Below, piece by piece: positions 1-54,106 of a DNA stretch of 64,000 nucleotides (positions within the stretch are counted from its first letter, which is position 1; each line of letters starts with the position of its first letter). The stretch lies in IMG/VR virus record IMGVR_UViG_3300031370_000003; one strand, given 5' to 3'. Under the pieces are notes generated by a model. The model was not told where the DNA came from and did not search any database. It saw nothing but the letters and a program-made list of their open reading frames with translations. Source of the stretch: a virus (Duplodnaviria; Heunggongvirae; Uroviricota; Caudoviricetes). The position numbers were made by a program, and so were the translations under genes.

Positions 1-106
1 AATTTCGCGCCAGCGACCACCAGCATGGGAGCAGGGTTTAAGTCATCATCGATGCACCCGCACCAGTTGGATGGTGCTGGCGTTGTTTATTCACATGGAG
101 GTGAAT

Positions 107-451
107 ATGCACGTAGCCTGGCAAACAGAACTCGCTGTTTATCGAAAAGGTGGGATGAACATCTATGGCGAGTCGAAATACCAGTTTGTGAGAAGCACCA
201 AAGTAGGCGTAGTGAATTTTACAGAAGGCGTCGTTAAATCGTCGGTACGAGCTGATAGCTCTGGCAGTCGTGGCAAAGCTGACGTTGAGACATTCAATGC
301 TGTGCTAATTGTGCCCCTGGCTGCTGATGTGAAGCTGGATGACGTATTGGTGATGTCTGGCACTAAGTTGCTGGTGGCGAGCGTAGAGCGTCGTTGGGGG
401 CTTCGTGGGCGCCCTGGTCATTTGGAAGTCGGGGCTAACGTATGGGTCTGA
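107..451 (+). CDS. virion morphogenesis protein (head-tail joining / tail-completion region), family not recognised
   Basis: In-frame part of ORF 71..451; ATG at 107 preceded by GGAGGTG (97-103); lies directly upstream of the tail gene block. Confidence 0.4.
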   Translation: MHVAWQTELAVYRKGGMNIYGESKYQFVRSTKVGVVNFTEGVVKSSVRADSSGSRGKADVETFNAVLIVPLAADVKLDDVLVMSGTKLLVASVERRWGLRGRPGHLEVGANVWV

Positions 452-912
452 GTTACGACGCATCAAAGTTACGACGCCAGGCCAATTCTCTCGATCAGCG
501 TCAAAAAGCGTTTAAGCGCTATCTGCTTCGCGATATGGAGAAGGTGGCGAAAGTGATGGAGCGATTAGCCAGAGCGATGGTGCCGATTGAAACCGGATCA
601 TTGGAAAAGGCGATCTACGCGCGCGTCATCAATAACTTCTCTGAGGTGAAGGTTGAGCTTTATGTCTCCGGTGCAACATCGCGCGAGGGACACCCGGGCG
701 TGACGGTTGGGCAATATGCGGATTACATGCACAACGATCACTACCGGCTTGGCCGATTGTCGAGAATGAAGAGCGTCACCAACCCGCCGATCGAGGGAAT
801 GCGAGCGAGGGTAGGGCGTCTCTACATGGAACGTGCGATTGAAATGGGTGAAAAGCGGTTCAGGGAAGCTGTAACGGAAGCAGCGAGAAAAGCTGGGTTC
901 ACAAGGGGGTGA
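442..912 (+). CDS. virion morphogenesis protein, unassigned (neck/tail-completion candidate)
   Basis: 156-aa ORF overlapping the previous gene by 10 nt (tight operon); position in the head-tail junction region. Confidence 0.4.
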   Translation: MGLSYDASKLRRQANSLDQRQKAFKRYLLRDMEKVAKVMERLARAMVPIETGSLEKAIYARVINNFSEVKVELYVSGATSREGHPGVTVGQYADYMHNDHYRLGRLSRMKSVTNPPIEGMRARVGRLYMERAIEMGEKRFREAVTEAARKAGFTRG

Positions 913-913
913 C

Positions 914-1294
914 ATGTTTATTGAAGCGTTTGCCAAATTTCTTCAGGACAAGAAGCTAGGCGTGATTGGTAAGGACACTTTCGCACATCACATGCCAGCT
1001 TCAGTCAAAAGCGGAATTTTACTGGTGAATCCCAATACTGGTATTGCTATTGACCGCGAGCTTGAAGGCTTTTATCAGGATGTTTTCACTGTAATCATCA
1101 GAGAGCCGACATTGTCTGCGGTGTCGGCCAGAGCTAACAAAATCATGGCTGTTCTGCCGCTTCTTGATACAGAAGTTCAGGGCATCCGGTTTAAATATGT
1201 TAAGCCTCTGTCTCTACCGATTATCTACCCGCAGGATGATGGATCACTGTTCGAAGCTGGTATTCCCGTCGAATTTGCAGCATATCCGGTGTAA
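914..1294 (+). CDS. tail-completion-like protein, unassigned
   Basis: 126-aa ORF; RBS AAGGGGG before ATG 914; immediately precedes the major tail gene as in lambda-like tail operons. Confidence 0.4.
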   Translation: MFIEAFAKFLQDKKLGVIGKDTFAHHMPASVKSGILLVNPNTGIAIDRELEGFYQDVFTVIIREPTLSAVSARANKIMAVLPLLDTEVQGIRFKYVKPLSLPIIYPQDDGSLFEAGIPVEFAAYPV

Positions 1295-1402
1295 TCATCA
1301 TTAAAATAGCCATATGGTTACTTTTTTAAAGTAAAAAATAGCTATATACTTACTTTTGCCGCAAGGAATGCGGCAACCAATGCAAAAAGGAGTTTGTAAA
1401 CA

Positions 1403-2164
1403 ATGGCTAACACCCATGTTAAAAATATCAAATTAGGCGCTTGCAAAGTGTCTTTCGGTGGCCAGGATCTTGGCTACACCAAAGGCGGCGTTGAAGTCGA
1501 GGTTTCTACCGAAACCCTAAAAGTCACCGTTGACCAGCTGGGTCAGACCACCATTTCTGAACTGGTGCAGGGTCGTAACGTAAAAGTTACCGCTCCGCTG
1601 GCCGAAAGTGTTCTGGCGAACCTGGTTAACCTGATGCCTGGCTCAACCATGTCTGCCGACAAAAACACCCTGTCTATCAGCTCCGCTCAGGGCGTCAACC
1701 TCGTTGACGTTGCTCAGGAGTTGATCCTGACTCCGCAGGATGGCACCGATTTCGTGCTGACTCTGCCGAAGGCGGCAACGGCGGGTAACTTCACCATGGC
1801 CTACAAATCCGATGACGTTCGCGTGTTCTCCGTTGATTTCAACGCATACCCGGACGAGGACGGCATTCTGGGAACCATGACCAACCCAAAGCCTGATGCC
1901 GGTGATGCGTCTGTCGCAGTTACCGGCGTAGCTGTTAACCCAACCACCGCGAACATCGCTGTGGGCGGTACTACCCAGCTGGCCGCAGTATTCGCCCCTA
2001 CCAACGCCACCGATAAAACCGGTACGTGGGTATCGAGCAACACTGCTGTAGTCACTGTTGATAGCACCGGCAAGGTAACAGGTAAAGCTGCGGGTAATGC
2101 CCAGATCACCTTCACCACCACTGACGGCGCGAAGACTGCAACAGCAGCCATCACCGTAGCGTAA
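1403..2164 (+). CDS. major tail tube protein with C-terminal Ig-like (Big_2-type) domain
   Basis: Strong RBS AAGGAG 8 nt upstream. C-terminal ~80 aa (VTGVAVNPTTANIAVGGTTQLAAVFAPTNATDKTGTWVSSNTAVVTVDSTGKVTGKAAGNAQITFTT...) is a typical bacterial Ig-like fold decorating phage tail tubes (as in lambda gpV). Followed by a strong terminator and chaperone genes. Confidence 0.7.
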   Translation: MANTHVKNIKLGACKVSFGGQDLGYTKGGVEVEVSTETLKVTVDQLGQTTISELVQGRNVKVTAPLAESVLANLVNLMPGSTMSADKNTLSISSAQGVNLVDVAQELILTPQDGTDFVLTLPKAATAGNFTMAYKSDDVRVFSVDFNAYPDEDGILGTMTNPKPDAGDASVAVTGVAVNPTTANIAVGGTTQLAAVFAPTNATDKTGTWVSSNTAVVTVDSTGKVTGKAAGNAQITFTTTDGAKTATAAITVA

Positions 2165-2169
2165 CCCTA

Positions 2170-2196
2170 AAGAGGCTCAGGACGAGCCTCTTATTT
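2170..2196 (+). terminator. rho-independent terminator after major tail gene
   Basis: Stem AGAGGCTC / GAGCCTCT (2171-2178 / 2184-2191), loop AGGAC, followed by TATTT. Confidence 0.7.
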
Positions 2197-2204
2197 AAAC
2201 GGAA

Positions 2205-2528
2205 TTGAAAATGACCAAATTACTCGACCTGGATGCCATTTCGCCTCCACAAAAATCAGTCAAGTTCGGCGGCAAAAAGTACCCGATCGTTGAAATGACC
2301 GTTGGCTTGTTTGTTGCCATCAAGCAGATGGAAGGCAAAGACCTGGCGGCTCTGTCTATGGCAGATCAGGTAACCGCATATGCAGATTTGGTGCAGAAAT
2401 TACTGCCGACCGTCACGTCTGAAGCGCTCCAAAAGCTGACTTTGCCTCAGCTGCAGCAAGTCTTCACCTTCGCAATGGAAGTGGTTGAAGAAGAAAACGA
2501 AAAAGCTGCTGGTGAAGAAGCAAAGTAA
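2205..2528 (+). CDS. tail assembly chaperone (lambda gpG-like)
   Basis: 107-aa acidic C-terminus; position between major tail and tape measure; followed by a -1 frame ORF ending at the tape-measure start. Confidence 0.6.
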   Translation: MKMTKLLDLDAISPPQKSVKFGGKKYPIVEMTVGLFVAIKQMEGKDLAALSMADQVTAYADLVQKLLPTVTSEALQKLTLPQLQQVFTFAMEVVEEENEKAAGEEAK

Positions 2529-2551
2529 TCACCCGCGATGAGTCCGGGCAG

Positions 2552-2881
2552 ATGGTGACGGTTTCCATCGATCTCGGATTCTATTTCAGTCGTGTTGTTG
2601 CTCACTATGCCGTCTCGCCGATAGAGCTACTCCAGCTACCGCTGGCCATGTTTTGGATGTTAAGCCGAAACATTGATCGTCTCCGGGCTGAAGAGGATGT
2701 CCGTAGATTCCAGGTGGCAAGGGTCGCCCAGGCAGATGCGGATAGCGGCAAGGCGTTTATGGAGGGTTTGCAACACCGTATTGGAAGACCAGTCGTTACC
2801 GATAAAGTCTACGATCCAAGTTATGCGAAAGCAGACCCCGACGCCAAAGAGCAACTGATGAAAATATTTGGCGCAGGATGA
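2552..2881 (+). CDS. -1 frameshift extension of the tail assembly chaperone (gpGT-like)
   Basis: ORF in the -1 frame relative to 2205..2528, ending 8 nt before the tape measure start. A-rich run CGAAAAAGC at ~2505-2513 near the end of the G-like ORF is a candidate slippery site; arrangement matches the conserved G/GT programmed frameshift. Confidence 0.45.
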   Translation: MVTVSIDLGFYFSRVVAHYAVSPIELLQLPLAMFWMLSRNIDRLRAEEDVRRFQVARVAQADADSGKAFMEGLQHRIGRPVVTDKVYDPSYAKADPDAKEQLMKIFGAG

Positions 2882-2888
2882 CAAGGGA

Positions 2889-5800
2889 ATGTCTGACAAC
2901 GTAGAGTTTATTCTGTCGCTGGACGATAAAAAGTTCACCGCGGCAATCGACCGGGCGGGAAAACTGCTGGTCAGTTTTGGCGAGAAGGCCACAAAGCCAG
3001 CGCAAAAAATCGCAACACTTGAGCGTTCTCTGGGTTCCGTTGCCGGGATTCTGGGTACGCTCGACAAAAAGCTGGAATCGGTCGCCAATGGTCTTCAGGA
3101 CTTAGGCGCCGGTTTCGAGCTTGTCTCTAAGGCAATGCGCGACACCAGACAAGAGCTGGTGACGTTTAATGCCAACCTCAAAACCTACACCACATGTATT
3201 GACGCCGCCGACAAAGCCACGAAGGGGTTTCATCATTCCTTGCAGGCTGTTCAGTCAGAGCTGAGCGACTTCTCTGATTGGGCTAATCACGCTGGACGTG
3301 CAGCCTCATCCTTTGGCCATGAGGTCAAAGAGGCTAATACAGCCACCTCCGGTATGAACACTCGTTTGTCCAACTCCAGCAAGCGAATGGAGAATTGGGC
3401 TGCATCGTCCACCAAAGCCGCTGCCCAGATGAAAAAGGTCGTGGCGGAGATGGATGCGCTGATTAACCGCCAAAGAGAATTGGGCAATCTGCGAGCGGAT
3501 GTGCGTGGCCCTGGTCGTGGTGGTTCCGGTGGAAGTTCGAGCGGTTCCGGTGGCGGTTCCGGTCGTGGTGGTCGTCACTCAAGCGGCGGGCTGATGGACG
3601 GCATGAAAGGCAATATCTTCATGCTCGGTGAAATCGGTGATGCAGCTTATACCGTTCAGCAGATGTTGTTTGGTTGGCAGGTGCCGATCGTCGAAGCAGC
3701 AGCCCAGATGCAGAAGATGCGCATCTTGCTTGAAGGCATGAACAAAGAAGCTGCCAACCCGAAGCTGGCTGCGACTAATGACATGAATTACATCGTGAAC
3801 ATGGCTAAAACAGCCCCGTTCGCAATGGAAGCTCTGACAGACGCATTCGTTAAATTCAAATCAGCTGGCATCGATCCCGCCAATGGCTCTCTAAAGTCGC
3901 TGGTTGACTCTGTGGCACGTTTTGGTGGCGATAGTGAGCTGTTGAAGCGAGCAGCTGTGGCAATCCAGCAGATGTCCGGTAAGGGCGTCATTTCGATGGA
4001 AGAGCTGCGTCAGCAATTAGGTGAAGCCGTTCCTACCGCGATGCAGGCAATGGCAGATTCCGCTGGCGTTACCATGGGGCAACTGACCAAGGCGATTTCT
4101 ACCGGTACTGTCTCAGCGAAGCAGGGTTTAGAGCTGTTATTCCAGGGGCTTGATGCTCAAAGCCGTGGTGCAGCCGAAAATCTGATGCAGGCATACAGTG
4201 GGGCGCTGGCGCAACTCCAGACCTCATTCACTCTGTTTGCTGATCGTATTGGTCGTGCCGGCTACCTCGAATCCATCACTAAAGCCTTCAAAGAGCTGTC
4301 CAATTACATGAACAGCACTGACGGTAAGGTGTTTGCGCAGGATCTGGGCGAGGGGTTGTCCACTGCGGTAAATGCGTTGATGGACATGGCGAAGTGGGCG
4401 GAGCGCAACAAAGAGCTGCTTCTCACTCTCGGCCAGGCTGCTTTGGCGTTGATCGGCTTTAAGGTGCTGAAAGGTACTGTGACGGGGCTGGCCACCGCAG
4501 GGACGCAAATGGGTGGTAGCCTCAAAAAAGCCTTTGAGGTCGTAAATGGCGCTGGCGCGAAAACAATCAGTGTAATTGCCGGTGTGGTTAAAACATTCCG
4601 TGATTTCGGCGGTACCGCGGCGATGATCATCTATGTAGGTGAGGCCATTAAGATGGTTCGCACTGCATGGCTGGCATTCCAGGCAGTGATTGTGGCTAAC
4701 CCTGTGGGCGCAGCCATTACAGCGATCGCTGTAGCGGTCGGTGGCTTAATCGCCGTTATGACGTCGCTGCGTGACAAAACTGCCGAAACAGTGGCGGAGA
4801 TTCGTAAGATCCCTGAAGCGATGACAGCCGCCCAGCGATCTCAGATGACCGCTCGTATCAAGCAACTGGAGAGCCAGAACAGCGGCGATCAGCAGACTCT
4901 TGAAGCGATGAAGAGTGGCGGCCTGTCATCCTCAGCAATTGGCGTAGATCAGAAGGCACTTCAGTCGCGGTTAGAAGCAAACCAGAAGGAGTTGGCTCAG
5001 CTTAAAGAGACCGTTGGTATGGGTGATAAAGCCCAATACGAGAACCTGGCGCGCGACATTGTCACCAAACGTCTGGAAGACGTAGACAACGGCATCAAAG
5101 CGGGGATGGCGCAGTACAGCACAACCACTCTCAAGGATGCGCGTAATAAGCGCACGGTGCTTTCGCAAGACCAGAAAATGTCTCCTTCTGAGAAAAGCGC
5201 GCAGCTGGAATCAATCAACGCTTCCGATCGCGATGCTCATCTTAAGCCATTCCTTGAAGGGGCAGACAAAACCCAAAAGATCGTCGATAGCCTTGGGCAA
5301 GAGGTTGTTCGAATTACGAAACTGCTGGAAAACCCGAATCTGAATGACAGCGATCGCTCGCGTCTGCAAGGTCAATTAAATGGCCAATCTCAGGCATTTA
5401 ACACCGCGCAGGAGTCACTCAGCAGCCTCCAGGGGCAAATTAAGAACATCCGTGAGCAATCTGGCAAGGGTTTGCAGATGCTGGATGGCTCTTATTACAC
5501 CGGGGTTGGCGGTACCAAAAAGCAAGATGATCGTCTGAACTCACTGTTTGTTAATTCCCAGCTCGGTACTGGCAAACAAACTCGAATGAATCCAGACGGC
5601 ACAATCATGCGTGATATTGCCGGTGATGCTGTGATGGGTGATGCCCAGCTGAAGGCCAACACTAAGCTGCGTTCCATCTACGGCGAAACCATCAAGATGG
5701 AGCAGCTGACCGCAGATCAGCGCGAGAAGATCTCTTCCATCCTGACCGCAGCAAAGCTGAAGGATGAGCAAAAAGCGCAGCGCGCAGCTGAGCGAGCGGG

Positions 5801-9988: not shown

Positions 9989-10141
9989 TGCAAAACACTA
10001 TGCCAGGCTTAGACGTTTGCGGTGGTGGCTAAGGTAGATTAAGTAAAACAGTTGGGCATTGACAGGATGTTGATGCCCAACCAATCGCCGGCAGGATGCC
10101 AGCGATCACACATAAATTGCACCAAAAAAGGGAGATTTTCG

Positions 10142-13100
10142 GTGGCAACTGTTAAAGAAAGACGCCTGCTCGCCGGTTCTGGCGGTGGCAGCAAGGGCGG
10201 CGGTTCCGCTCGCACGCCTGTAGAAGACAAAGATAATGTTCAGTCGCGATCACTCGCCTCAATCCTTGACCTTCTTGGTGAGGGAAAAATTGGTGGATTG
10301 ATCAATGGCGGCCAGTCAATTTTCCTCGACAATGTACCAATTCTAAACCCGGACGGCACCAGTAACTTTAATGGGGTTACCTGGTGGTTTCGTGATGGAA
10401 CCCAGAATCAGGCAGTGATCGAGGGCTTTGATGCCGTTGAAACCCCGCATGATGTTGGCGTCCAAATCAAGCTGTCTACCCCTCGTACCATTCAGATCGA
10501 CAACGATGATTCTGACCAGGTACGTGTCATTATGATGTTCCCGAAACTGACCAAAACGGATCGGAAGTCGGGTGACACCCACGGTACGACCGTTCAATTC
10601 CAGTTTGAGATCGCATACGGCACTACATCGTTTAAGCCAATTAAACCGCAAGGATATGCCTCACATGTCGTTACGCTGAGCAAAAAGTCCAGCGGCAAAC
10701 ACTATCGTGAATATCTTTTTGACCTGCCCAAGCCAGGCTCAAACTATCGCATTCGCGTAAGCCGCGTGACCGCTGATAGCACCACTGACTATATCCAGGA
10801 TCAGACCTGGCTCAGTCAGTACGGTGAAATCGTCAGCACAAAACTTAACTACCCAAACAGTGCGCTTGTTGGTCTTAAAATCGACTCGCAGCAATTTGGT
10901 AGTTCTGTGCCGGCGCGTTCCTACTTGGTCTCGGGTATGGAAATCCGCGTTCCGTCCAACTATGACCCGGTGCTTGGTACGTATTCGGGAGATTGGGATG
11001 GAACCTTCCGTTTAATGGTATCTGAAAACCCTGCCTGGATTTTGTACGACCTGCTCACCAGTAAGCGCTATGGCTTGGGAGAGTACGTCACTGAATCAAT
11101 GATCAACATCGGCCAGCTTTACCAGATTGGGCGCTATTGCGATGAGCTGATCAATGATGGATTCGGGGGCAAGGAGAAGCGCTTCGCAATTAACACCGTA
11201 ATTAACTCACGCGGTGAGGCGTACAAGGTTCTTCAGGATATTGTATCGACTTTCCGGGGGATGATTTTCTGGGCTGGTGGCATGGTTAACATCATGCAGG
11301 ATAGCCCAAGTAGCCCGGTCATGCAGTTCAGTGCTGCGAACATCATTGGCAAAGTATCTTACAAAGGCTCTTCCCGCAAAGACCGCGCAACTGTAGCCCT
11401 CATCACCTACAACGACAAAGATGACCTGTACAAGCAGAACATCGAGTACGTTGAAGATGAAGAGGGTATTAAGCGTTTTGGTGTACGTAAAACTGAATCA
11501 GTAGCTTTCGGATGTACAAGCCGTGGCCAGGCTCACCGTGTGGGGCTTTGGACGCTTTATAGCAACCGCATGGAAACAGATCTGATCACCTTCACCTCTG
11601 GTATGGACGCATCGTTACTCATGCCTGGCGAGCTGGTGAAACTGCAAGATAAGTTCCGATCAGGGAAACGAAATTCCGGGCGTCTGGTGAACTACACCAA
11701 AAACAGCATCACACTCGACGCCTCTGTAAAACTGACTAAAGCCGGGAACACCGTCTCTTTCCTAAGTGCTAAAGGGAAGATGATTGATCGCGACCTTATT
11801 GAAGGCGCTGGCGAATACACTGTTGTCACCTTCAAGAAGGCATTAACTGAAGAAGAATACCCAGCGATTATGGGGATCTGGTCAGTCATTGAGCCTAAGC
11901 TGGAGCCAATGCTGCTGCGTGTGCTGGCCGTTAACCAGAATGAGGAGAAGGGTGCCTTTGATATCGTGGGTGTGCAGCACAACCCTACGAAGTTTAACGC
12001 TATCGATGAAGGGGCCACACTCGTTCCATCGAAGACGACCATTCTCGACCCGACTTTCTCAACCCCTGAAAACCTGCAGGTGACCGAAGGCACATATGTT
12101 TCTTCTCCAGGTAACCTTTCGGTAAAACTGATGGTGAGTTGGGAGGGCAAGTCACCTTCGTATGTGCTGCGTTACCGTCGTTCCGATGTTGTTGAAGATT
12201 GGGTTACAACAGAAGTTAAGACTGAGCAGTTCGATATTTTAAACGCTGCTGAGAATGGCATGTATGACATCGAGCTGTACTCGATTTCAGCCACGGGAAG
12301 ACGTTCCAGCGTCATTTCCATGGTGTACACCACTCTTGGAACGATGACGCCACCAGACGCGCCCACGCTTCTCACAGCGATCGGGGATTATCGCGTCAAC
12401 GTTCTGGCATGGCAGTTGCCTGGCACAATCGACATCGACAAAATTAACGTTTACGCCTCTCGCACCAACGATCTCACCACCGCGTCTCTTATTGCGGCGG
12501 TTGCCTCGACGACATTTACCCATAGCGGGCTGGGCGATGACGAAACTTGGTTTTATTGGGTGCGCGCAGTAAACAAGCGCGGAATGCTGAGCCAGCCAAA
12601 CTCTTCCCTCGGCACCGAGGCTACCACCAAAGATGTTCTGTCGTTCCTGAAGAACAAAATCACCTCTTCTGAGCTTGGGCAGGATCTTCTTGCTGACATC
12701 AACCAGTCAGCGGCAAAAGAAGCTGTTGAAGAGGTCAGCAAGAAGATCGACGAAAGCGTGGGTGAGCTGCATAAAACCGTCGATGAGATTGAGCTGTCTG
12801 TTACAGGTGTTAAGCAGTCAGTGACCGACATGCAAAACTCGTTCGACGGCATGGAGAAAGAGCAGAGTGACCTGAAGGCAAACGTTCAGGACACGGCAGA
12901 TAAAGTTAGCCAGGCGATCGATGAACTAGACGATGCCACCGCCAATGTTTTGGCTCTAAAGGAGACCGTCAAGAAGCAGGGTGAGTCCGTTGCCAGCACT
13001 CTCGATGCGGCACAGGCAGCTTTGGACGGTAGCAAAACGCTTATCGCCGAAGAGAGACAGGCTCGTGTTGATGGTGATACAGCGATCGGCAAAAAAGTTG

Positions 13101-14728
13101 ACACTATGCAGTCAGTGGTGGACACCGGCCAGGCCAACATTGATGAAATGAAACAGACGGTGGCAGGAGTCGAGCAAACAGCATCACAGTGGTCAACGAG
13201 TTTGGAGGCAAATGCAAAAGCGAATATCGATCTGGCACTTCGTCAGGAAGAAGACAAAAAGCAGCAGGCGTCAACTAACGCATCGGTGACCACCAGCCAG
13301 CAGGCTTTGGCAGACTCTGTTTCATCGGTAGCCAAGCGTGTCGATGAGATGAAAGCTGAAATCGGTGATGACATCGCCGCGCAGTTGCAGGAAGAAAGGG
13401 AGACCCGAGCTAGTGCTGATGAGGCGGTCACTACCCAACTTACCCAGCTGAAGGCTCAAGTTAATGATGATGTTAAAGCGTCGCTGGCAACCGAGCAGCA
13501 GGCTCGTGCTGATGCTGATAGTGCTTTGTCGAAGCAGGTCACAAATCTGCAGTCGCAGGTTAATACTAACGTTAAAGCGCAGATCGCAGCGGAGGCCAAG
13601 ACGCGGGCGGATAAAGACAGTGCCTTGTCCAGCCAAATTACCGCACTCAGCGCGCAGGTTAACAACGATGTGACCGCCCAGATCGCAACTGAGTCAAAGG
13701 CACGAACTGCTGGTGACACCGCAATCAGTACCAAAGTCGATACACTGGCAACCAAAACTACCAGCGACATCAAAGCAGCGGTAGCCACGGAGACTAAAGC
13801 CAGAACAGACGGCGATACCGCATTGGGGAGTCAGATTACGTCATTGAAAACCCAGACGGCTTCCGACATCAAAGCTGCGGTGGCCACTGAGACCAAAGCA
13901 AGAACTGACGGTGATTCCGCGCTCAGTAGCCAAATTAGCTCTCTTAAGACGCAAACGGCAGCAGATATTAAAGCCGCGGTAGCTACTGAGACAAAAGCTC
14001 GTACCGATGGCGATACTGCGCTGGGAAGCCAGATTACGTCCCTAAAAACGCAGACTGCGGCTGACATTAAAGCGGCTGTTGCTACAGAGACGAAGGCTCG
14101 TTCAGATGCCGATTCGGCTATGGCCAGTGACATCACCGCGCTTAAATCCAGAGCCGGAAAGATTGAGTCGTCAGTGACCTCTGAGCAAACAGCGCGCGCT
14201 AATGGTGATACAGCATTGGGCAAGCGAGTTGATACGGTCAGCGCCAAAGCTGATTCGGTTTCATCCACCGTTCAACAAACTTCTCAAGCCGTGGCTAATG
14301 TGAACTCTAAGGTTTCTGCATCTTGGACGTTGAAGATGGAGACCTCCACCTCAAACGGCCAAAAGTATGCTGCTGGCATGGCGCTGGGGATCGACGGATC
14401 AGGGCTGTCACAGTTCCTGATTCGCGCTGACCGCTTCGGGTTGGTTAACTCCGTCGATGGCAAGGTGACCACGCCATTTGTGGTGCAAAACAGTGTTGCC
14501 TACATGAATGGTGCGTACATCAAAGACGGCACAATCGTGAACGCCAAAATTGGTGATTTGCAATCCACTAACTACGTTTCGGGAAGGACTGGTTGGCGAA
14601 TTGCAAAAGGAGGTGCTTTCGAGATGAATGGTAACAGCGGAAGCACCGGCCGCATGGTGATCAACAATAACCGAATCGAAGTGTATGACGAGAATGGGCG
14701 TCTTCGAGTACGAATGGGATTGATGTAA
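10142..14728 (+). CDS. central tail fiber / host specificity protein (lambda gpJ-like)
   Basis: N-terminal GSGGGSKGGGSARTP...SLASILDLLGEGKIGGL resembles the J N-terminus. Probable start is GTG 10142 preceded by AAGGGAG (the ORF track's ATG 10052 adds ~30 unrelated residues). ~1530 aa with a 33-aa repeat block and distal domains. Confidence 0.85.
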   Translation: MATVKERRLLAGSGGGSKGGGSARTPVEDKDNVQSRSLASILDLLGEGKIGGLINGGQSIFLDNVPILNPDGTSNFNGVTWWFRDGTQNQAVIEGFDAVETPHDVGVQIKLSTPRTIQIDNDDSDQVRVIMMFPKLTKTDRKSGDTHGTTVQFQFEIAYGTTSFKPIKPQGYASHVVTLSKKSSGKHYREYLFDLPKPGSNYRIRVSRVTADSTTDYIQDQTWLSQYGEIVSTKLNYPNSALVGLKIDSQQFGSSVPARSYLVSGMEIRVPSNYDPVLGTYSGDWDGTFRLMVSENPAWILYDLLTSKRYGLGEYVTESMINIGQLYQIGRYCDELINDGFGGKEKRFAINTVINSRGEAYKVLQDIVSTFRGMIFWAGGMVNIMQDSPSSPVMQFSAANIIGKVSYKGSSRKDRATVALITYNDKDDLYKQNIEYVEDEEGIKRFGVRKTESVAFGCTSRGQAHRVGLWTLYSNRMETDLITFTSGMDASLLMPGELVKLQDKFRSGKRNSGRLVNYTKNSITLDASVKLTKAGNTVSFLSAKGKMIDRDLIEGAGEYTVVTFKKALTEEEYPAIMGIWSVIEPKLEPMLLRVLAVNQNEEKGAFDIVGVQHNPTKFNAIDEGATLVPSKTTILDPTFSTPENLQVTEGTYVSSPGNLSVKLMVSWEGKSPSYVLRYRRSDVVEDWVTTEVKTEQFDILNAAENGMYDIELYSISATGRRSSVISMVYTTLGTMTPPDAPTLLTAIGDYRVNVLAWQLPGTIDIDKINVYASRTNDLTTASLIAAVASTTFTHSGLGDDETWFYWVRAVNKRGMLSQPNSSLGTEATTKDVLSFLKNKITSSELGQDLLADINQSAAKEAVEEVSKKIDESVGELHKTVDEIELSVTGVKQSVTDMQNSFDGMEKEQSDLKANVQDTADKVSQAIDELDDATANVLALKETVKKQGESVASTLDAAQAALDGSKTLIAEERQARVDGDTAIGKKVDTMQSVVDTGQANIDEMKQTVAGVEQTASQWSTSLEANAKANIDLALRQEEDKKQQASTNASVTTSQQALADSVSSVAKRVDEMKAEIGDDIAAQLQEERETRASADEAVTTQLTQLKAQVNDDVKASLATEQQARADADSALSKQVTNLQSQVNTNVKAQIAAEAKTRADKDSALSSQITALSAQVNNDVTAQIATESKARTAGDTAISTKVDTLATKTTSDIKAAVATETKARTDGDTALGSQITSLKTQTASDIKAAVATETKARTDGDSALSSQISSLKTQTAADIKAAVATETKARTDGDTALGSQITSLKTQTAADIKAAVATETKARSDADSAMASDITALKSRAGKIESSVTSEQTARANGDTALGKRVDTVSAKADSVSSTVQQTSQAVANVNSKVSASWTLKMETSTSNGQKYAAGMALGIDGSGLSQFLIRADRFGLVNSVDGKVTTPFVVQNSVAYMNGAYIKDGTIVNAKIGDLQSTNYVSGRTGWRIAKGGAFEMNGNSGSTGRMVINNNRIEVYDENGRLRVRMGLM
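13690..14110 (+). repeat. ~99-bp tandem coding repeats (x4) inside the J-like gene
   Basis: Protein-level repeats KAAVATETKARTDGDTALGSQITSLKTQTA(A/S)DI seen four times; matching DNA periodicity. Confidence 0.6.
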
Positions 14729-14905: not shown

Positions 14906-17900
14906 ATGTGGTACAGGGAAGGTACTAAGACCTTGATCAATGGCTCTAACATCGTTACCGGTGTTGGCACCAGTTGGTCAAAGGCTGAAAATGGCGTTCT
15001 GCCGGGCATGATTTTGCTTGGTGAAAAAGGCGAGCCATACGAAATCAAGTCAGTTGAGTCAGATACATCGCTTACGCTCGTTGAACCTTACGATGGTAAA
15101 AATGTGAATGGCACGCCATGCCGTATCATCACCACCTATCAGGGGGACATTAGTCAATTTTCAGCGCGCTTTGCGGCTCAGTTGCAACGCATGAATATTG
15201 ATTCAGGCGTTATTCGTTCTTGGCTTACTTCGGGGCAGGACGCCCAGCTGTTAGCTGAGGATGGCACTCTGATCACGCTGAAGGCTTTGCGTCAGATCAT
15301 ATCTGAGCACGAAGGGGCAATGGCTTGGTTTTCCGCAAACAAGGATTCGATCCTTAAGGCCGCCGCTAACGCAACAGCTGCTGCTTCAAGTGCGTCAGCC
15401 GCATTGTCATCCCAGAAGGCGGCAAAGACTTCAGAGACAAGCTCAGCGGGATCAGCGAGTGCGGCTGCATCTTCCAAAGCGGCAGCGGCGGTTTCCGCTA
15501 CCAAAGCGGCAGCGTCAGAGAAAAACGCCAAGGCGTCTGAAGTTAACGCCAAGACATCCGAAACCGCCGCAAGTGGTTCGGCAATCGCTGCAGCTACCTC
15601 AGAAACTAGCGCAAAAGCCTCCCAGGACTCTGCAACTTCCTCTGCTGGAAAGGCTGCAACTTCGGAGAAGAACGCCGCAGCATCCGCCACCAGCTCAGCC
15701 AGCTCAAAGGGTTCGGCAGCAACGTCGGCAACGAGTGCCGCCACCTCCGCAACTAACGCTAAAACATCCGAGAGTAACGCGAAGAAGTCCGAAGCAAACG
15801 CTAAGGCTTCTGAAAATGCAGCGGCTGGTTCTAAATCCGCAGCGGCGGCTTCAGAGGCTAACGCCAGTACCTCGGAAACAAATGCCGCATCTAGTGCGAC
15901 TGCGGCTAAGGCATCTGAGACCAGCGCTGCCAGCTCAAAATCGGCCGCGGCCACCTCTGCTACCAACGCTAAATCTTCAGAAACAAACGCAGCCAGCTCT
16001 AAAACAGCTGCGGCCACTTCTGCATCGAATGCGGCCACCTCGCAATCGAATGCGGCCACCTCGCAATCGAATGCCTCGACCTCCGAAGCTAACGCAAAGA
16101 AATCAGAGACAAATGCTAAAGCGTCTGAGAATGCCGCAGCGAGTTCAAGCTCTAACGCAGGCAAATCAGCGTCAGCTGCCAAAACCTCTGAAAACAATGC
16201 TGCCGCCAGTGCCTCGTCTGCTGCGGCATCGGCCAAGAGCCTCGATGCCGATAACTTATGGAATAAATCAACTTTAACTAAAGCGGTATTGGTCGGCTTA
16301 GGGTTGGCTCCGAGTGACGCTCCTTCCTTCACAGGTGGTGTCACCATTGCCGGTAGTATTTTGAATACTGGAGAAGTCCAAACAAAATCCGCTAACTCTT
16401 ACCGAATGGTTGGTAGTAAATACGGGCTTTTCCAACGCATTGATGGTTCCAACTGGTACATGATGCTGACCAACCTCAATGATAATTATGGAACCTATAA
16501 CGCTTTCCGCCCTCTTTCTATCGCTCTTACAAATGGAAGAGTAACTATGGGGAACGGTTTGAGCGTGACGGGCGATGTTAGGCTCGCTTCAGACCTATCT
16601 GTGACGGGCGCACTCAGCGCTTCAAAAGGTGGCATCATTAATGCGCCGGGGGCAGGAGCTGTAGCTGACCTTACCAAAGCAGCACTAGTTGTGAATGGCT
16701 CTGCAAATGATGGCTCTCAAGGTATCACGATCAACAGCTATGCGCCCGCGCTGTCCTTTATTGATCGTAGCGCATCAAACGCTGGTTTCCGCTGGCGTGG
16801 TGATGGCAACTGTTTGCGCTTAGATGTCGATAATCGTGACAATGGGGCAACATGGAACAGCAATCTAGTTCAGATTGACGAACAAGGTAGATTGAGCGTT
16901 GGTGGTGCAATAACAGCTGGTTACGCAGAGTCATTTACCTATCGGGATCAGTGGAAAACCAAAGCCCCTTTCTTCAACGAGTTTTCTTCGAGTGGGGCAA
17001 GCGAGTATCACCCCTTGGTGAAGCAAAAGGTGACTGCTGGGGATAAGAGCTATGTGGCGTCTCTCGGCTGGCTGGTTAACTCAATGGTCTTCGAGCTGAG
17101 CATTACTGATCAAGCCGGTACAACTCAAAACTTTATCTTTCGACCTAATGGTGAGTTCTCAACCCCGGCCAGAGTTTTGCCTGGAGACTATTCAAACTTC
17201 GACACCCGGTATTTGGGTATCAAAGCGAATGCAGTTAGCGCAAGTAAATTAGCCACGGCTCGTAAGATTGCAGGCAAGGCTTTTGATGGCACATCTGACA
17301 TTGCGATAAGCGCTGGTGACGTGAAGGCGTTACCTAATACTGGAGGCACTGTAGCCGGCCAAGTGACCGTTGCAGCAAATGGCGCCGCTCTTGTACTGAG
17401 AAGGTTGGCGGCGTCTCAAGCAGTTTACCTCATGGGACGTGACGAAAAAAACGTTGCACGTTGGTACGTTGGTAATGGCGGCACGGATGATGTTGTTACG
17501 ATTCACAACTACATCCAGAACACCACCTTGCAGCTTAACGCCAGTGAGTTGTACACCAACAGAAACATTCGCGCAGCCGGAAGTTTGACTATCAATGGCA
17601 GTGGCGAATCGAATGCGGTAGTAGGTTCAGGATCTGCCGATGTTTTCCTGCAAAATACAAAGTCAGGCAAGTATCTTCAGCTTAAAGATACCGGCGATCT
17701 GATGTACTCAAATCAGAAGATTTACCATGCAGGTAGCAAACCTACAGCGGCAGAAGTAGGCGCTTTGTCTTCATCGGGCGGTCAGGTGAGTGGAGAGGTC
17801 GTAACCACTTCAGCTAATGGCTTCCGTATTAAATACGGGGCCTTCGGTTCATTCTTTCGCAATGATGGAGGTTCAAGCTACTTCCTGCTGACTGCATCCG

Positions 17901-18604
17901 GGGACCAAAATGGAGGCTGGAACGGACTGCGTCCAATTTACTGGAGCAATATTACCGGCAACGTAACAATGGGTCATAACGTTGGCGTTGGCGGCTCTTT
18001 AACTGCTAACGGCGGGATTGTGTCGGGTAACGTTATCAATGTCCCGACGGCCAGTGGTTCATGGATCAGTATGCGAACCGGCACTGCTTTGCAAGGTAAT
18101 GGCGCTGTAGGCACCAGCTCTGCCGCAGCAGTCGTTCGTCAGGAGCACGCCGATCGCCATTACGTTTTGGGTGGCTTGGGCAACTCTCAGTTCGGCATCT
18201 ACATGATCAACAAATCGCGTACTGACAATGGTACTGATGCGTATGCGTATCTGGGTAGTGATGGCACCTGGACTTGCAGTGGCAATGGTAACTTTAACGA
18301 TGTGTACATCCGTTCTGACCGCCGCAACAAGCGCAACATTAAGAGAATTGATAGCGCACTGGACAAGCTGGAGAAAATCGACGGTGTGCTTTACGAAATT
18401 CAGAACATGGATGGGTATGATCAATCCGCTGGTCTCGTTGCTCAGCAAGTGCAGGAAGTGCAGCCAGAGTTGGTAACATCAGACATCGATCATGCCACTC
18501 AGGAAGAGCGCCTTCGCTTGAACTACAACGGTGTCATCGGCATGTTGGTTGAGGCGGTGAAAGAGCTGCGCGCGGAAGTTAAAGAGCTGAAGGAGGCCAG
18601 ATAA
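14906..18604 (+). CDS. tail fiber protein with C-terminal intramolecular chaperone (peptidase S74-type) domain
   Basis: RBS AAGGAG. Long low-complexity Ala/Ser-rich region with K-x-SE-x-NA periodicity. C-terminus ...SDRRNKRNIKRIDSALDKLEKIDGVLYEIQ...GLVAQQVQEVQPELVT...LNYNGVIGMLVEAVKELRAEVKELKEAR matches the auto-cleaving chaperone domain of endosialidases and T5 pb1-type fibers. Confidence 0.8.
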   Translation: MWYREGTKTLINGSNIVTGVGTSWSKAENGVLPGMILLGEKGEPYEIKSVESDTSLTLVEPYDGKNVNGTPCRIITTYQGDISQFSARFAAQLQRMNIDSGVIRSWLTSGQDAQLLAEDGTLITLKALRQIISEHEGAMAWFSANKDSILKAAANATAAASSASAALSSQKAAKTSETSSAGSASAAASSKAAAAVSATKAAASEKNAKASEVNAKTSETAASGSAIAAATSETSAKASQDSATSSAGKAATSEKNAAASATSSASSKGSAATSATSAATSATNAKTSESNAKKSEANAKASENAAAGSKSAAAASEANASTSETNAASSATAAKASETSAASSKSAAATSATNAKSSETNAASSKTAAATSASNAATSQSNAATSQSNASTSEANAKKSETNAKASENAAASSSSNAGKSASAAKTSENNAAASASSAAASAKSLDADNLWNKSTLTKAVLVGLGLAPSDAPSFTGGVTIAGSILNTGEVQTKSANSYRMVGSKYGLFQRIDGSNWYMMLTNLNDNYGTYNAFRPLSIALTNGRVTMGNGLSVTGDVRLASDLSVTGALSASKGGIINAPGAGAVADLTKAALVVNGSANDGSQGITINSYAPALSFIDRSASNAGFRWRGDGNCLRLDVDNRDNGATWNSNLVQIDEQGRLSVGGAITAGYAESFTYRDQWKTKAPFFNEFSSSGASEYHPLVKQKVTAGDKSYVASLGWLVNSMVFELSITDQAGTTQNFIFRPNGEFSTPARVLPGDYSNFDTRYLGIKANAVSASKLATARKIAGKAFDGTSDIAISAGDVKALPNTGGTVAGQVTVAANGAALVLRRLAASQAVYLMGRDEKNVARWYVGNGGTDDVVTIHNYIQNTTLQLNASELYTNRNIRAAGSLTINGSGESNAVVGSGSADVFLQNTKSGKYLQLKDTGDLMYSNQKIYHAGSKPTAAEVGALSSSGGQVSGEVVTTSANGFRIKYGAFGSFFRNDGGSSYFLLTASGDQNGGWNGLRPIYWSNITGNVTMGHNVGVGGSLTANGGIVSGNVINVPTASGSWISMRTGTALQGNGAVGTSSAAAVVRQEHADRHYVLGGLGNSQFGIYMINKSRTDNGTDAYAYLGSDGTWTCSGNGNFNDVYIRSDRRNKRNIKRIDSALDKLEKIDGVLYEIQNMDGYDQSAGLVAQQVQEVQPELVTSDIDHATQEERLRLNYNGVIGMLVEAVKELRAEVKELKEAR

Positions 18605-19089
18605 TGACAGTAGGATCTGGGTGGATTGGCTCAAGTGCAGTTGGGGAAACCGCTCAGCGTTGGATGTCGGCCGCAGGGCCGGCAATCAATGTCGGGGTTC
18701 CTTTTTGGATGAGTACATTGGCAGGCAAAAGTAAAGGGGTAAAGTTGACAGTGGTGCAAAAGCAGGTGGGAATTTTGCCACCTGGCGTTCGTGGGCCTCA
18801 GCCCTTCCCGATTGTAGAGTTTGGCTATCACAAAGCGCAAGGTTTTGGTGGTATTACCGGAAACTACAATGGCCGCGAAATTATTGCCCTATATTCAAGC
18901 ACACAATTTGGTGGTCTTTTGTTCCAGCTAAGTGGCGCAATGTCAGGCTCGGTCGTCATTAAAATTAACGGGGCGGCATTTACGTTGCCCTATAACTCAT
19001 CATTAAGTGCCTATGCGATTTCAAGTAATAATGCGGCCTACACTGCTTTGCAGACAAGAGTAGGCCAAACGGTCGATGTGACTTTTTAA
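18604..19089 (+). CDS. hypothetical protein (fiber-associated by position)
   Basis: 161 aa, ATGA overlap with the fiber gene stop; no family recognised. Confidence 0.4.
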   Translation: MTVGSGWIGSSAVGETAQRWMSAAGPAINVGVPFWMSTLAGKSKGVKLTVVQKQVGILPPGVRGPQPFPIVEFGYHKAQGFGGITGNYNGREIIALYSSTQFGGLLFQLSGAMSGSVVIKINGAAFTLPYNSSLSAYAISSNNAAYTALQTRVGQTVDVTF

Positions 19090-19169
19090 CGGTGATAGTA
19101 GGTATTTGACTACTAATCTGTATCAAGTAATGGATAATGCACCCATTCAAACCGAATGGGTGCATTATA

Positions 19170-19460
19170 ATGAAATGTTTAAACTTATCCTTCCTTGCAT
19201 TGGCTCTTGCCTCGCTAACTACTACTGGCTGCGCCGGACTTCCCGACTCAAAAAGTGAGAAAGTTGATTGTGTTGCGAAATACATCTCTGGAACCTGGCC
19301 TGGTGGTGAGCACTGGGTGAAGGTTGACGAACGTCGTGTTAATCACGTTGGGCATCGTTACGTTCACGTAAGAAGTGATTTAGTCCTGCACTTCTATGGC
19401 CGCTGGCAACGAGAAGAGTTGTTCGCTGATTACCAGTGCAAAAAGGCAGGTGAGGTATGA
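19170..19460 (+). CDS. small lipoprotein (paralog 1)
   Basis: Signal peptide MKCLNLSFLALALASLTTTGC with lipobox-like TGC; paralogous to the next gene (shared K-V-x-C-x-x-KY...W-K-D......G-RYVH pattern). Confidence 0.55.
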   Translation: MKCLNLSFLALALASLTTTGCAGLPDSKSEKVDCVAKYISGTWPGGEHWVKVDERRVNHVGHRYVHVRSDLVLHFYGRWQREELFADYQCKKAGEV

Positions 19461-19744
19461 TTAAACTAGGCTCAAAGCTCCTTGTCGCCGCTCTGGTTTT
19501 AAACGTGGTAGGGTGCGCAGATCTGCAAAAATTCGAGAGACACAAGGTAAGCTGCTACGGTAAGTACGGTTCGAACTTTACAGGCTTTACCCGTTATAAG
19601 TGGATAAAGATTGACGCTATCAGCGTCAGTCAAAACGGCACTCGATATGTTCACCCAGAGCCAGACCTCGATGTGAGTTTCGAGGCCAATTGGGTCTCGG
19701 ACAAAGTGTTTAAAGAAATCCAATGTGACCCCCATCCAAAATAA
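19457..19744 (+). CDS. small lipoprotein (paralog 2)
   Basis: MIKLGSKLLVAALVLNVVGCADL lipoprotein signal; ATGA overlap with paralog 1. Confidence 0.6.
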   Translation: MIKLGSKLLVAALVLNVVGCADLQKFERHKVSCYGKYGSNFTGFTRYKWIKIDAISVSQNGTRYVHPEPDLDVSFEANWVSDKVFKEIQCDPHPK

Positions 19745-19855
19745 TCCCCAAAAGCGCCTGTTGGCACTTTTTCTTTGGTTGTTAGCTACTTACTTTCTTG
19801 TTGCATTTTGCTACTATTTGCGCCTATCGAGATTTGACTTTTCATGGAGGAAAAA

Positions 19856-20182
19856 ATGTCAAATGAGATGGGAGGCGTGACCCCAGACCAGGTGGAGCGC
19901 ATTGCCCAAATTGTCGCCAGAGAGGTCATGGGGAACTTGCGAAAGGATCTCCGTGATGACATCGGCGCAGAAGTGAAAGCACAGCTTGGGGCCTATTTTG
20001 GTGACATGACTGCCGCCCAGCACAGCATCCAGCACTCAAATCTGGAAAAGCTGCTGACGCGGTTAGACAGCATCTCAAGTGGATTCTTCGGCGGCATCAT
20101 CTCCAAGATCACATCCATTCTAACCGCTGCTCTTCTTCTGGGGCTGGCGGCGTATGGCGTTAAAAACGGTTTCGGCAACTAA
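19856..20182 (+). CDS. small protein with single C-terminal TM helix (holin-like candidate)
   Basis: RBS GGAGG 5 nt before ATG 19856; hydrophilic N-terminus and one C-terminal TM (ILTAALLLGLAAYGV); first gene of the putative lysis cassette. Confidence 0.3.
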   Translation: MSNEMGGVTPDQVERIAQIVAREVMGNLRKDLRDDIGAEVKAQLGAYFGDMTAAQHSIQHSNLEKLLTRLDSISSGFFGGIISKITSILTAALLLGLAAYGVKNGFGN

Positions 20183-20196
20183 GAGGAAAGCTAAGG

Positions 20197-20889
20197 ATGG
20201 CTACTTCAAGAGGTATCAGAAACAACAACCCAGGTAATCTTGACCGCGGTGCGCCGTGGCAAGGTCTGGTGGACAACCCTGCAGAACCGCGGTTCTGCAC
20301 CTTTAAGGACGCTACCTGGGGCATCCGTGCTCTGGCAGTAACGCTCATCACCTACCACGACAAACGTAAAGCGCGCGATGGCTCGCCGATCGATACTGTC
20401 CGTGAAGTGATCGAACGTTGGGCGCCGCCGCATGAGAACGACACCGAGGCTTACATCAATGCGGTGGCCAAGGCAGTCGGCGTCTCTCCTGAGATGATTG
20501 TGGATCTTCACGACTACAGCACCCTACGCCCCTTGGTAGAAGCGATTATTCGCCATGAGAACGGCAAAGGCCCATTAAAGACGGCAAACAGCTGGTACTC
20601 AGTGGAAGCCATCGATGAGGGTCTGCGTCGTGCCGGTGTGGTGCGAGTGGTTAAAGCTGTAAAAGCAGTTCCAGTCACTAAGGAATCTGCTGGCGCAACG
20701 ATTACTGCCGGCATTGGTGTCGCGCAGCTGGTGGACGTAGCACCGCAGATCACACATGCAATGGATAAGGCTCAGGACAATATCTCCAGTGGCGATACCA
20801 TCCGCATCGTGTTCGGTGTTGCCACGGTAGCAATTGCACTTTTCATTGCCTGGTCTCAGGTTCGCAAACACCAGAAGGGGATCGCGTAA
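20197..20889 (+). CDS. lysis-cassette protein of unknown fold with C-terminal TM anchor (endolysin candidate, unproven)
   Basis: 230 aa; N-terminal GIRNNNPGNL motif; C-terminal TM (IVFGVATVAIALFIAW); sits between holin-like and spanin-like genes. No canonical lysozyme/amidase/peptidase motifs recognised by eye. Confidence 0.3.
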   Translation: MATSRGIRNNNPGNLDRGAPWQGLVDNPAEPRFCTFKDATWGIRALAVTLITYHDKRKARDGSPIDTVREVIERWAPPHENDTEAYINAVAKAVGVSPEMIVDLHDYSTLRPLVEAIIRHENGKGPLKTANSWYSVEAIDEGLRRAGVVRVVKAVKAVPVTKESAGATITAGIGVAQLVDVAPQITHAMDKAQDNISSGDTIRIVFGVATVAIALFIAWSQVRKHQKGIA

Positions 20890-21140
20890 TGCTTCTTGGC
20901 CTTTACATTAAGGTCAAGCAGTACCTGTTGACGGCTGCGGCCGTCATCATGGTGCTTGCTGGTGCCTATTACCTCGGTGGCCTGGCTGCTCGCCGGTCAA
21001 TGGAAATCAAAGCAGAGCGTGAAGACAACAAGCGCCTGCAACACACACTGGATGTGAAAAATGACGTTATCAATGCAGTCCGACGCTCGGATGATGCTAC
21101 CGTTGATGCTCAGCTTGCTGCTGATTGGATGCGTGATTAA
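20889..21140 (+). CDS. i-spanin-like (Rz-like) protein
   Basis: 83 aa, N-terminal TM then charged coiled region; ATGA overlap with previous gene; overlapped at its 3' end by a lipoprotein ORF in another frame. Confidence 0.45.
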   Translation: MLLGLYIKVKQYLLTAAAVIMVLAGAYYLGGLAARRSMEIKAEREDNKRLQHTLDVKNDVINAVRRSDDATVDAQLAADWMRD

Positions 21141-21291
21141 GCCACCAGCCCAAGGGGGGCTGTTCTGCGACGCAGCAAACCCCATTTACGTTAGCCATAG
21201 CGATCAGCTAACGCAGGAAACAAAACGTGAGATCCTTTCCCACAACGTTCAAGGCGCTACGTTGTGCCATTGGGAGAAAAAGCCCCGTTAG
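21091..21291 (+). CDS. o-spanin-like (Rz1-like) outer-membrane lipoprotein
   Basis: MMLPLMLSLLLIGC lipobox; Pro-rich (PPAQGG); starts inside the 3' end of the Rz-like gene in a different frame (overlapped spanin architecture). Confidence 0.5.
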   Translation: MMLPLMLSLLLIGCVIKPPAQGGLFCDAANPIYVSHSDQLTQETKREILSHNVQGATLCHWEKKPR

Positions 21292-21536
21292 CGTTGTGCT
21301 TTTGAAGGCGTCTCGCTGGGTCTGGGGACGCCGGTTTTCCTTACCGGCTGTAAGGAACTAATCAACGTTTGGTTGAGTTTAGTGGTTGCCACAAAGCCAT
21401 ATATGACGTAAATTTGTTAGACAGTTGACGAAAGCGTCAACCCAATTTTAAGACCTACGAAGCATCCTCGTAGCCTCTAAATCCCCAGGTTGGGGGTCGC
21501 CGAACACGCTGCATAGCACTCGGCTAAGGTGGAAAC

Positions 21537-53917: not shown

Positions 53918-54106
53918 ATGATTAAGTTCTACACCTTCACAATTGGAGTGATTGCATCTGCCTTAGCGGTGTATCGATTCATTGTGCCAGCACTGTTCTC
54001 ACTGAGTGATGATTTCGCCATGGTTTTGGCCGTTGTAATCGCTCTTTCTTATCCGGTCGCCCTGGTGACCATCTCTAAAAAAGTATGGAAACGCAAAAAG
54101 AAATGA
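53918..54106 (+). CDS. small membrane protein
   Basis: 62 aa, two hydrophobic segments; AAAACACATG context. Confidence 0.35.
   Translation: MIKFYTFTIGVIASALAVYRFIVPALFSLSDDFAMVLAVVIALSYPVALVTISKKVWKRKKK

Follow-up and report, generated by a model that had tools for sequence, protein, structure and literature searches.

Characterized members of the Cor/Llp superfamily stop further phages from attaching to an infected cell, and receptor-blocking lipoproteins are a main way in which siphophages and prophages bar later phages, with a specificity that co-varies with the receptor choice of the phage. The lipoprotein Llp of phage T5, in complex with its target FhuA (PDB 8A60, chain B), provides a known mechanism for this kind of blocking (PMC9586334); Llp and Cor are ~20% identical, and a disulfide is common to both (PMC9586334). 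More generally, receptor-binding loci are associated with exclusion proteins (PMC8594841; PMC13164509; PMC12685063). Cor of N15, phi80, T1, HK022 and SSU5 (SSU5_025) belongs to the FhuA-type gp22-gp23-cor cassette; transport through FhuA is blocked by T5 Llp. Unnamed lipoproteins of ~89 aa in Drexlerviridae (e.g. KarlJaspers bas06_0026), Dhillonvirus and Queuovirinae are regarded as the cognate exclusion proteins of their receptor-binding loci (PMC8594841; PMC13164509), and Rtp45 is an exclusion lipoprotein that binds LptDE (PDB 9RPS).

Here, we describe two adjacent lipoprotein genes, LpA and LpB, in a 64-kb stretch of phage DNA, the whole of which is referred to as the window. Like T5 Llp, their products are small lipoproteins, predicted here to reside in the outer membrane, that are encoded beside receptor-binding genes; however, T5 llp is divergent from its pb5-type receptor-binding gene and has an early promoter, whereas LpA and LpB are co-oriented after a tail-fibre adhesin, and they also differ from Llp in being present as two copies. 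An early promoter was not detected (18746-21385), and none of the genes nearby was recognised as a pb5 homologue. The pair shares its slot, between the fibre adhesin and the holin, with Cor of SSU5, but the gp22/gp23 partners of Cor are absent here. The ~89-aa lipoproteins occur as single copies, in every case adjoining a gp22/gp23-like pair next to J; LpA and LpB, by contrast, form a doublet without such a pair and follow a side-fibre adhesin. Rtp45 represents the functional class that we propose for LpA and LpB and has the same genomic logic (PMC12685063).

The lipoprotein genes and their neighbourhood

The window is 64 kb of an SSU5-like phage-plasmid of the Enterobacter type whose full length is about 110 kb. 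Its DnaB shares 80% identity with the counterparts in SSU5 and in phage-plasmids of Klebsiella and E. coli, and its best DNA match is plasmid pCP102 of Enterobacter sp. CP102 (92.8%). Copies identical to the window are present on metagenome contigs of ~110 kb, and Enterobacter cloacae and E. hormaechei have yielded close variants. Searches for near-identical DNA among phages and in E. coli genomes returned no match, and a scan of representative genomes returned no relative.

Region 19100-19800 contains two small open reading frames in the same orientation. LpA (19170-19460, plus strand) encodes a 96-aa prelipoprotein starting at ATG 19170 (MKCLNLSFLALALASLTTTGC...), with the lipobox cysteine, Cys21, at 19230-19232 and Ala at position +2 (...LTTTGC-AG); the mature form has 76 aa and contains the conserved residues Cys34, Trp79 and Cys90. 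LpB (19457-19744, plus strand) encodes a 95-aa prelipoprotein (MIKLGSKLLVAALVLNVVGC...), with Cys20 of the lipobox at 19514-19516, again followed by Ala at +2 (...NVVGC-AD). The LpA stop and the LpB start overlap as ATGA, and AGGTGAGG at 19448-19455, just 5' of the LpB start, is the LpB ribosome-binding site. Two lipobox patterns were used, and LpA and LpB each satisfy one and fail the other. Under the Lol sorting rule, Ala (non-Asp) at +2 of a lipoprotein directs it to the outer membrane; from the lipobox and this residue, both products are predicted to be outer-membrane lipoproteins.

LpA and LpB are 36% identical over 85 residues (BLASTP, E 1e-15) and are true, diverged paralogues. The original prediction of two adjacent paralogous lipoproteins of ~95 aa downstream of the tail fibre genes is thus borne out by the two reading frames with their signal peptides and lipoboxes, by this similarity and by the genes that precede them. 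The start of LpA is an exception: it had been placed at ATG 19137, whereas 19170 is preferred because it gives a proper lipoprotein signal peptide. The 107-aa reading from the in-frame ATG 19137 was dropped because its 11-residue extension lies within a hairpin (see below) and is not conserved in relatives. Some public records call LpA as 107 aa from this upstream ATG.

The genes preceding the pair, all on the plus strand, encode a J-like central tail-tip protein, a side tail fibre and a tail-fibre adhesin. The J-like protein (10052-14728; 1558 aa; PF24801, PF13550 and PF09327 on an identical contig) is 31-36% identical in its C-terminal 300 aa to J of T1, N15, Rtp and Dhillonvirus. The C-terminal third of this protein (~13100-14100 of the window) contains many near-identical repeats of ~26 residues (..ATETKARTDGDTALGSQITSLKTQTA.DIKAAV..), probably an extended coiled coil that precedes the conserved domain at the C-terminus. 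The side tail fibre (14906-18604; 1232 aa; PF21446, PF20744, PF13884) has gp34/gp37 trimerisation domains and a C-terminal S74 intramolecular chaperone; two further reading frames in its Ser/Ala-rich low-complexity region (15292-16347, minus strand, 351 aa; 15390-16277, plus strand, 295 aa) were rejected as composition artefacts. The adhesin (18604-19089; 161 aa) has an N-terminal domain of the T2/T6 gp38 type (PF21721 Gp38_N, E 3e-16; PHROG 1121) and a unique C-terminal part, tblastn matches to T-even gp38 being limited to residues 1-50.

LpA and LpB come directly after these fibre and adhesin genes and are themselves followed by the lysis cassette (19856-21291, plus strand; PHROG 5093, 873, 1026 and 1275), in synteny with SSU5_026-030. 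It comprises a holin-like protein (19856-20182, alternative start 19844; PHROG 5093), an endolysin of 230 aa (20197-20889; PHROG 873), an Rz-like i-spanin (20889-21140) and an embedded Rz1-like o-spanin lipoprotein (within 21061-21291). The product called holin matches only PHROG 5093 (function unknown) and has one C-terminal hydrophobic segment, and a C-terminal hydrophobic stretch of the endolysin (...IRIVFGVATVAIALFIAWSQVRKHQKGIA) resembles a membrane anchor. The GC content of the two lipoprotein genes is 44-49%, as against 51-56% in the flanks. The window encodes a third lipoprotein (54103-54948, plus strand; 281 aa; MKKVIVALLLAASAFTLTAC...), which has an SPFH/Band 7 domain (PF01145, E 5e-23) and no relationship to Cor/Llp.

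A hairpin at the LpA start codon and other signals

The perfect hairpin that had been noted at 19139-19163 is present exactly there, with the core GCACCCATTC-aaacc-GAATGGGTGC of 10 bp, and extends to a perfect 14-bp stem with a 5-nt loop at 19135-19167 (plus strand). The fold has a dG of -22.1 kcal/mol (z -7.9), and none of 200 shuffled sequences folded as well. Its 3' end lies 2 nt from the LpA start codon, and the only Shine-Dalgarno-like bases before LpA (GGGUG, 19158-19162) sit within it. Every stem position is paired in all five diverged variants, although the flanking intergenic spacer diverges; one pair changes in the series C-G/U-G/U-A and another is a U-G wobble. This covariation is statistically not strong with five sequences, being equalled by 143 of 500 shuffles. 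The wobble pairs would be functional only in RNA of the sense strand. The hairpin is not a textbook terminator, because no T-run follows the stem in the window (ATTATAATG); the Cronobacter version has TTTT. Probably, the hairpin limits translation of LpA, attenuates read-through from the tail operon, or does both.

No promoter-like sites were found between 18746 and 21385. Two hexamers near the LpA start were considered and rejected, namely TATAAT at 19166-19171, which runs into the start codon and is not shared by pCP102, and GATAAT at 19133-19138, which on inspection has no acceptable -35 element. After LpB, a terminator-like stem with a T-run (AAAAGCGCC-tgtt-GGCACTTTTTCTTT; one mismatch) is located at 19750-19778 (plus strand). 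In the window, this stem is not significant (-9.9 kcal/mol, z -0.9) and was not called by a consensus terminator scan; in the Cronobacter relative, it is perfect (-20.2 kcal/mol, z -3.7).

Relationship to Llp and Cor

PHROG 1119 ("Cor superinfection exclusion protein") was matched by LpA (E 2.7e-3) and LpB (E 5.4e-5) with weak scores, and by 20 of the 20 members of our first family alignment (best E 7.5e-12). This profile also takes in T5 Llp (1e-19), N15 Cor (3e-32) and T1 Cor (3e-30), but not Rtp45, which matches PHROG 4281 and has no sequence relation to LpA and LpB (hhalign probability 1.2%). A hidden Markov model of the family itself detects LpA with E 5.5e-29 and LpB with E 3.9e-24.

Because signal peptides inflate the scores, the profile comparison was repeated with the mature parts only. 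The full-length family profile had matched Cor with 90-97% probability; these scores were discounted once the signal peptides were removed, when N15 and T1 Cor reached only about 20% (T1 Cor falling from 96.6%). With T5 Llp, the mature-only comparison gave a probability of 86% (E 4.7e-6) and paired both cysteines and the tryptophan. The cysteine pair (Cys34 and Cys90 in LpA numbering) is invariant in 69 of the 69 aligned lipoprotein sequences and aligns with the two cysteines of Llp. LpA and LpB are ~18-20% identical to Llp, and their mature part is ~15 residues longer.

These comparisons place LpA and LpB in the Cor/Llp superfamily as divergent members that resemble Llp more closely than classic Cor. 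They share with Cor the lipobox and the cysteine pair in addition to the PHROG; nevertheless, they are not Cor in the strict sense, because the Cor equivalog NF047972 of NCBIfam was not reached (LpB 12.7 bits against a cut-off of 31; LpA no match) and because the classic-Cor and family models do not detect each other. For the likeness to T5 Llp, proposed earlier from gene position, there is now support beyond position in the form of remote homology (PHROG 1119 and the mature-only alignment) and of the Cor annotated in the same slot of SSU5; the T5 gene arrangement itself is absent.

An exhaustive profile search of 1.8 billion representatives delimited the subfamily as 55 clusters at 50% identity, of which 53 consist of lipoproteins of 79-118 aa; the other two are long proteins (796 and 968 aa) with partial matches. 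The closest relatives outside phage-plasmids are the ~89-aa lipoproteins mentioned above, with 30-36% identity and a match to the same family model. Searches of Pfam, NCBIfam and PADLOC gave no usable match for LpA or LpB, and a sequence search of the PDB gave only a marginal match to Llp (E 0.41), mostly in the signal peptide. AlphaFold models (pLDDT 74 and 77) contain a small five-stranded beta domain, for which Foldseek found nothing significant in the PDB. In BFVD, the best structural matches were lipoproteins of T5-like Providencia and Proteus phages (E 5e-4, TM about 0.6), and a "receptor-blocking protein" of a T5-like Yersinia phage ranked ninth. The predicted fold is weakly compatible with an Llp-like placement.

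Slot content, variation and the proposed role

In Drexlerviridae (for example KarlJaspers, whose terminal receptor is BtuB), as well as in Dhillonvirus, a Queuovirinae Vibrio phage and an unclassified metagenomic contig, the receptor-binding locus next to J contains a single subfamily lipoprotein together with a gp22/gp23-like pair. The SSU5-like plasmid pCS1 of Cronobacter sakazakii has the order J, lipoprotein, gp22-like, gp23-like and side fibre. Its lipoprotein is of the LpA type, and the stretch between J and the side fibre (2914-4233 of locus L023) is the canonical receptor-binding locus that is absent from the window; the gp22-like gene (3313-3585) is missing from the PLSDB gene table.

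Among SSU5-like elements, the content of the slot between adhesin and holin is variable. SSU5 has a gp22-like gene, a gp23-like gene and the annotated classic Cor (SSU5_025); E. coli phage Cyrano and Klebsiella pJN2-26 have nothing; the plasmid of Cronobacter sp. JZ38 has LpA only; and the window clade has LpA and LpB. Searches with tblastn using four different gp22/gp23-type pairs, including those of pCS1, SSU5 and Dhillonvirus BEK2-2, found no such genes in the 64-kb window, and because these partner genes are lacking, no cognate receptor-binding protein was identified. Every other lineage examined pairs its lipoprotein with gp22/gp23-type genes. By the family model, two adjacent copies occur in 12 of the 12 loci of the window clade, and one copy in 11 of the 11 loci of other lineages. 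The nearest non-orthologous relatives of LpB are the LpA group, and LpA has closer relatives elsewhere; this fits either a local duplication long ago, after which LpB diverged faster, or capture from a lineage that is missing from the sample.

The two genes remain intact in all 12 loci, three diverged variants among them, with pairwise omega values of 0.16-0.35 for LpA, the more variable of the two, and 0.02-0.16 for LpB. Both copies are under purifying selection, and neither is decaying. These observations bear on whether LpB and LpA could be a recent, redundant duplicate, with one copy decaying or serving as an equivalent spare. The tandem arrangement and the affinity of LpB to the LpA group would be consistent with such a local duplication; however, the copies share only 36% identity, both are maintained across the diverged variants with low omega for each, and the Cronobacter relative that keeps LpA alone shows that they are separable, so that we regard redundancy as extremely improbable.

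The stretch from the adhesin to LpB is a recombination hot spot. Compared with the window, the variants L026 and L027 are 66% identical in the adhesin, 67% in LpA and 80% in LpB, as against 99% in holin and endolysin and 95% in the J C-terminus, whereas in pCP102 only the adhesin is replaced (59%; LpA 92%, LpB 94%). The original prediction had proposed a comparison with variants of the receptor-binding domain; in this small sample, the identity of LpA and LpB does not follow that of the adhesin or that of the J tip one-to-one. Assigning targets by covariation with the adhesin, the fibre tip or the J tip was not decisive. A route to BtuB through KarlJaspers was also considered and set aside, the lipoproteins being ~33% identical and the gp22/gp23-like partners of the nearest phage-plasmid relative only ~21%; the link to BtuB is weak.

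With somewhat better than even confidence, we propose by analogy to Llp acting on FhuA and to Cor that LpA and LpB are superinfection-exclusion lipoproteins of the Cor/Llp superfamily that act as periplasmic blockers of outer-membrane receptors. Each lipoprotein would have its anchor in the outer membrane's inner leaflet. Its beta domain of ~76 residues, stabilised by the disulfide of the two conserved cysteines, would bind an outer-membrane receptor from the periplasmic side, the most plausible receptor being a TonB-dependent transporter. Binding would alter the surface loops of the receptor such that phage receptor-binding proteins could not attach, and phages would consequently be kept from infected or lysogenic cells as well as from lysis debris. 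As both copies are conserved despite an identity of only 36%, their targets are most likely two different receptors or variants of a receptor. We further speculate, with little confidence, that one paralogue blocks the receptor of the gp38-type adhesin (probably a porin, not a TonB-dependent transporter) and the other a transporter-type receptor, with the hairpin setting their relative dosage. If this is true, an exclusion lipoprotein would for the first time be known as the cognate of a gp38-type adhesin, and LpA and LpB would be a natural pair of paralogues showing how Cor/Llp proteins are retargeted.

The same biochemistry may also serve a different role, in which LpA and LpB no longer match the receptor-binding proteins of their own element and are kept by the plasmid prophage as lysogenic-conversion genes against unrelated phages or colicins (e.g. 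at BtuB- or FhuA-type transporters). We give this reading a fairly low probability, and as it overlaps with the proposal above, both could hold. The absence from the window of the gp22/gp23-type genes with which the lipoprotein is paired elsewhere would be expected of such genes, as would the failure of lipoprotein identity to follow adhesin or J tip; the low GC content relative to the flanks is moron-like. In N15 and phi80, Cor is expressed from the prophage and gives resistance to other FhuA-dependent phages, which is a further point in favour of this role. However, LpA and LpB are co-oriented within the late string of tail and lysis genes with no promoter of their own detected, a cognate partner could exist in the gp38-type adhesin or in the J tip, and the window is only part of the element.

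A role outside exclusion, as accessory lipoproteins of the lysis cassette (spanin- or antiholin-like) or of fibre assembly, is quite unlikely, because the cassette is complete without the pair, is intact in relatives that lack it, and homologues are encoded far from lysis genes. It would explain why the genes lie immediately 5' of holin, endolysin, Rz and Rz1, and the likeness to Cor/Llp would then be generic; indeed, the signal peptide supplies part of the full-length profile scores, as the fall for T1 Cor illustrates, and one family member weakly matches a spanin PHROG (E 0.0067). No spanin PHROG is matched by LpA or LpB, and neither belongs with the o-spanins, Rz1-like lipoproteins that have a short, proline-rich mature part and are encoded within or after an i-spanin gene. 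The element already has its own Rz/Rz1 pair at 20889-21291, the cassettes of Cyrano and pJN2-26 are intact with no lipoprotein in the slot, homologues elsewhere are found in receptor-binding loci, and the mature-only match to Llp, including both cysteines, persists.

That exclusion lipoproteins exist is well established, and Cor is already annotated in this slot in SSU5. New here are the Llp-like subfamily, which has no annotation, the tandem arrangement of the two genes, which is conserved and lacks cognate gp22/gp23 genes, and the hairpin conserved at the start codon of the first gene; the kind is ordinary, and doubling of the copy in the absence of partner receptor-binding genes adds modest novelty. 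A conserved pair of this divergence in one element would let one ask which residues set target specificity, and whether plasmid prophages stack such genes against several phages or colicins. The pair also bears on predicting the phage resistance of Enterobacter strains that carry these phage-plasmids.

The 55-cluster subfamily is unnamed in the databases and lacks a Pfam model, and one gene of the pair is often overlooked by gene callers. Public gene calls lose one of them in several records (L007 10382-10669; L026 5714-6004; L027 6288-6575), and among the missed genes are LpB in the PLSDB table of pCP102, LpA in one Logan contig and LpB in an E. cloacae assembly.

On one 8.5-kb Logan contig (L005), positions 1-4465 are 99.9% identical to 16295-20309 of the window, from the C-terminus of the side fibre through the adhesin, LpA and LpB to the holin. 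Upstream of this shared block, the contig carries DNA that is unmatched in the 64-kb window, with genes for a DEAD helicase, ParB_N and Flag1_repress. The junction could represent transfer of the module to another backbone, a part of the element that lies outside the window, or a chimeric assembly.
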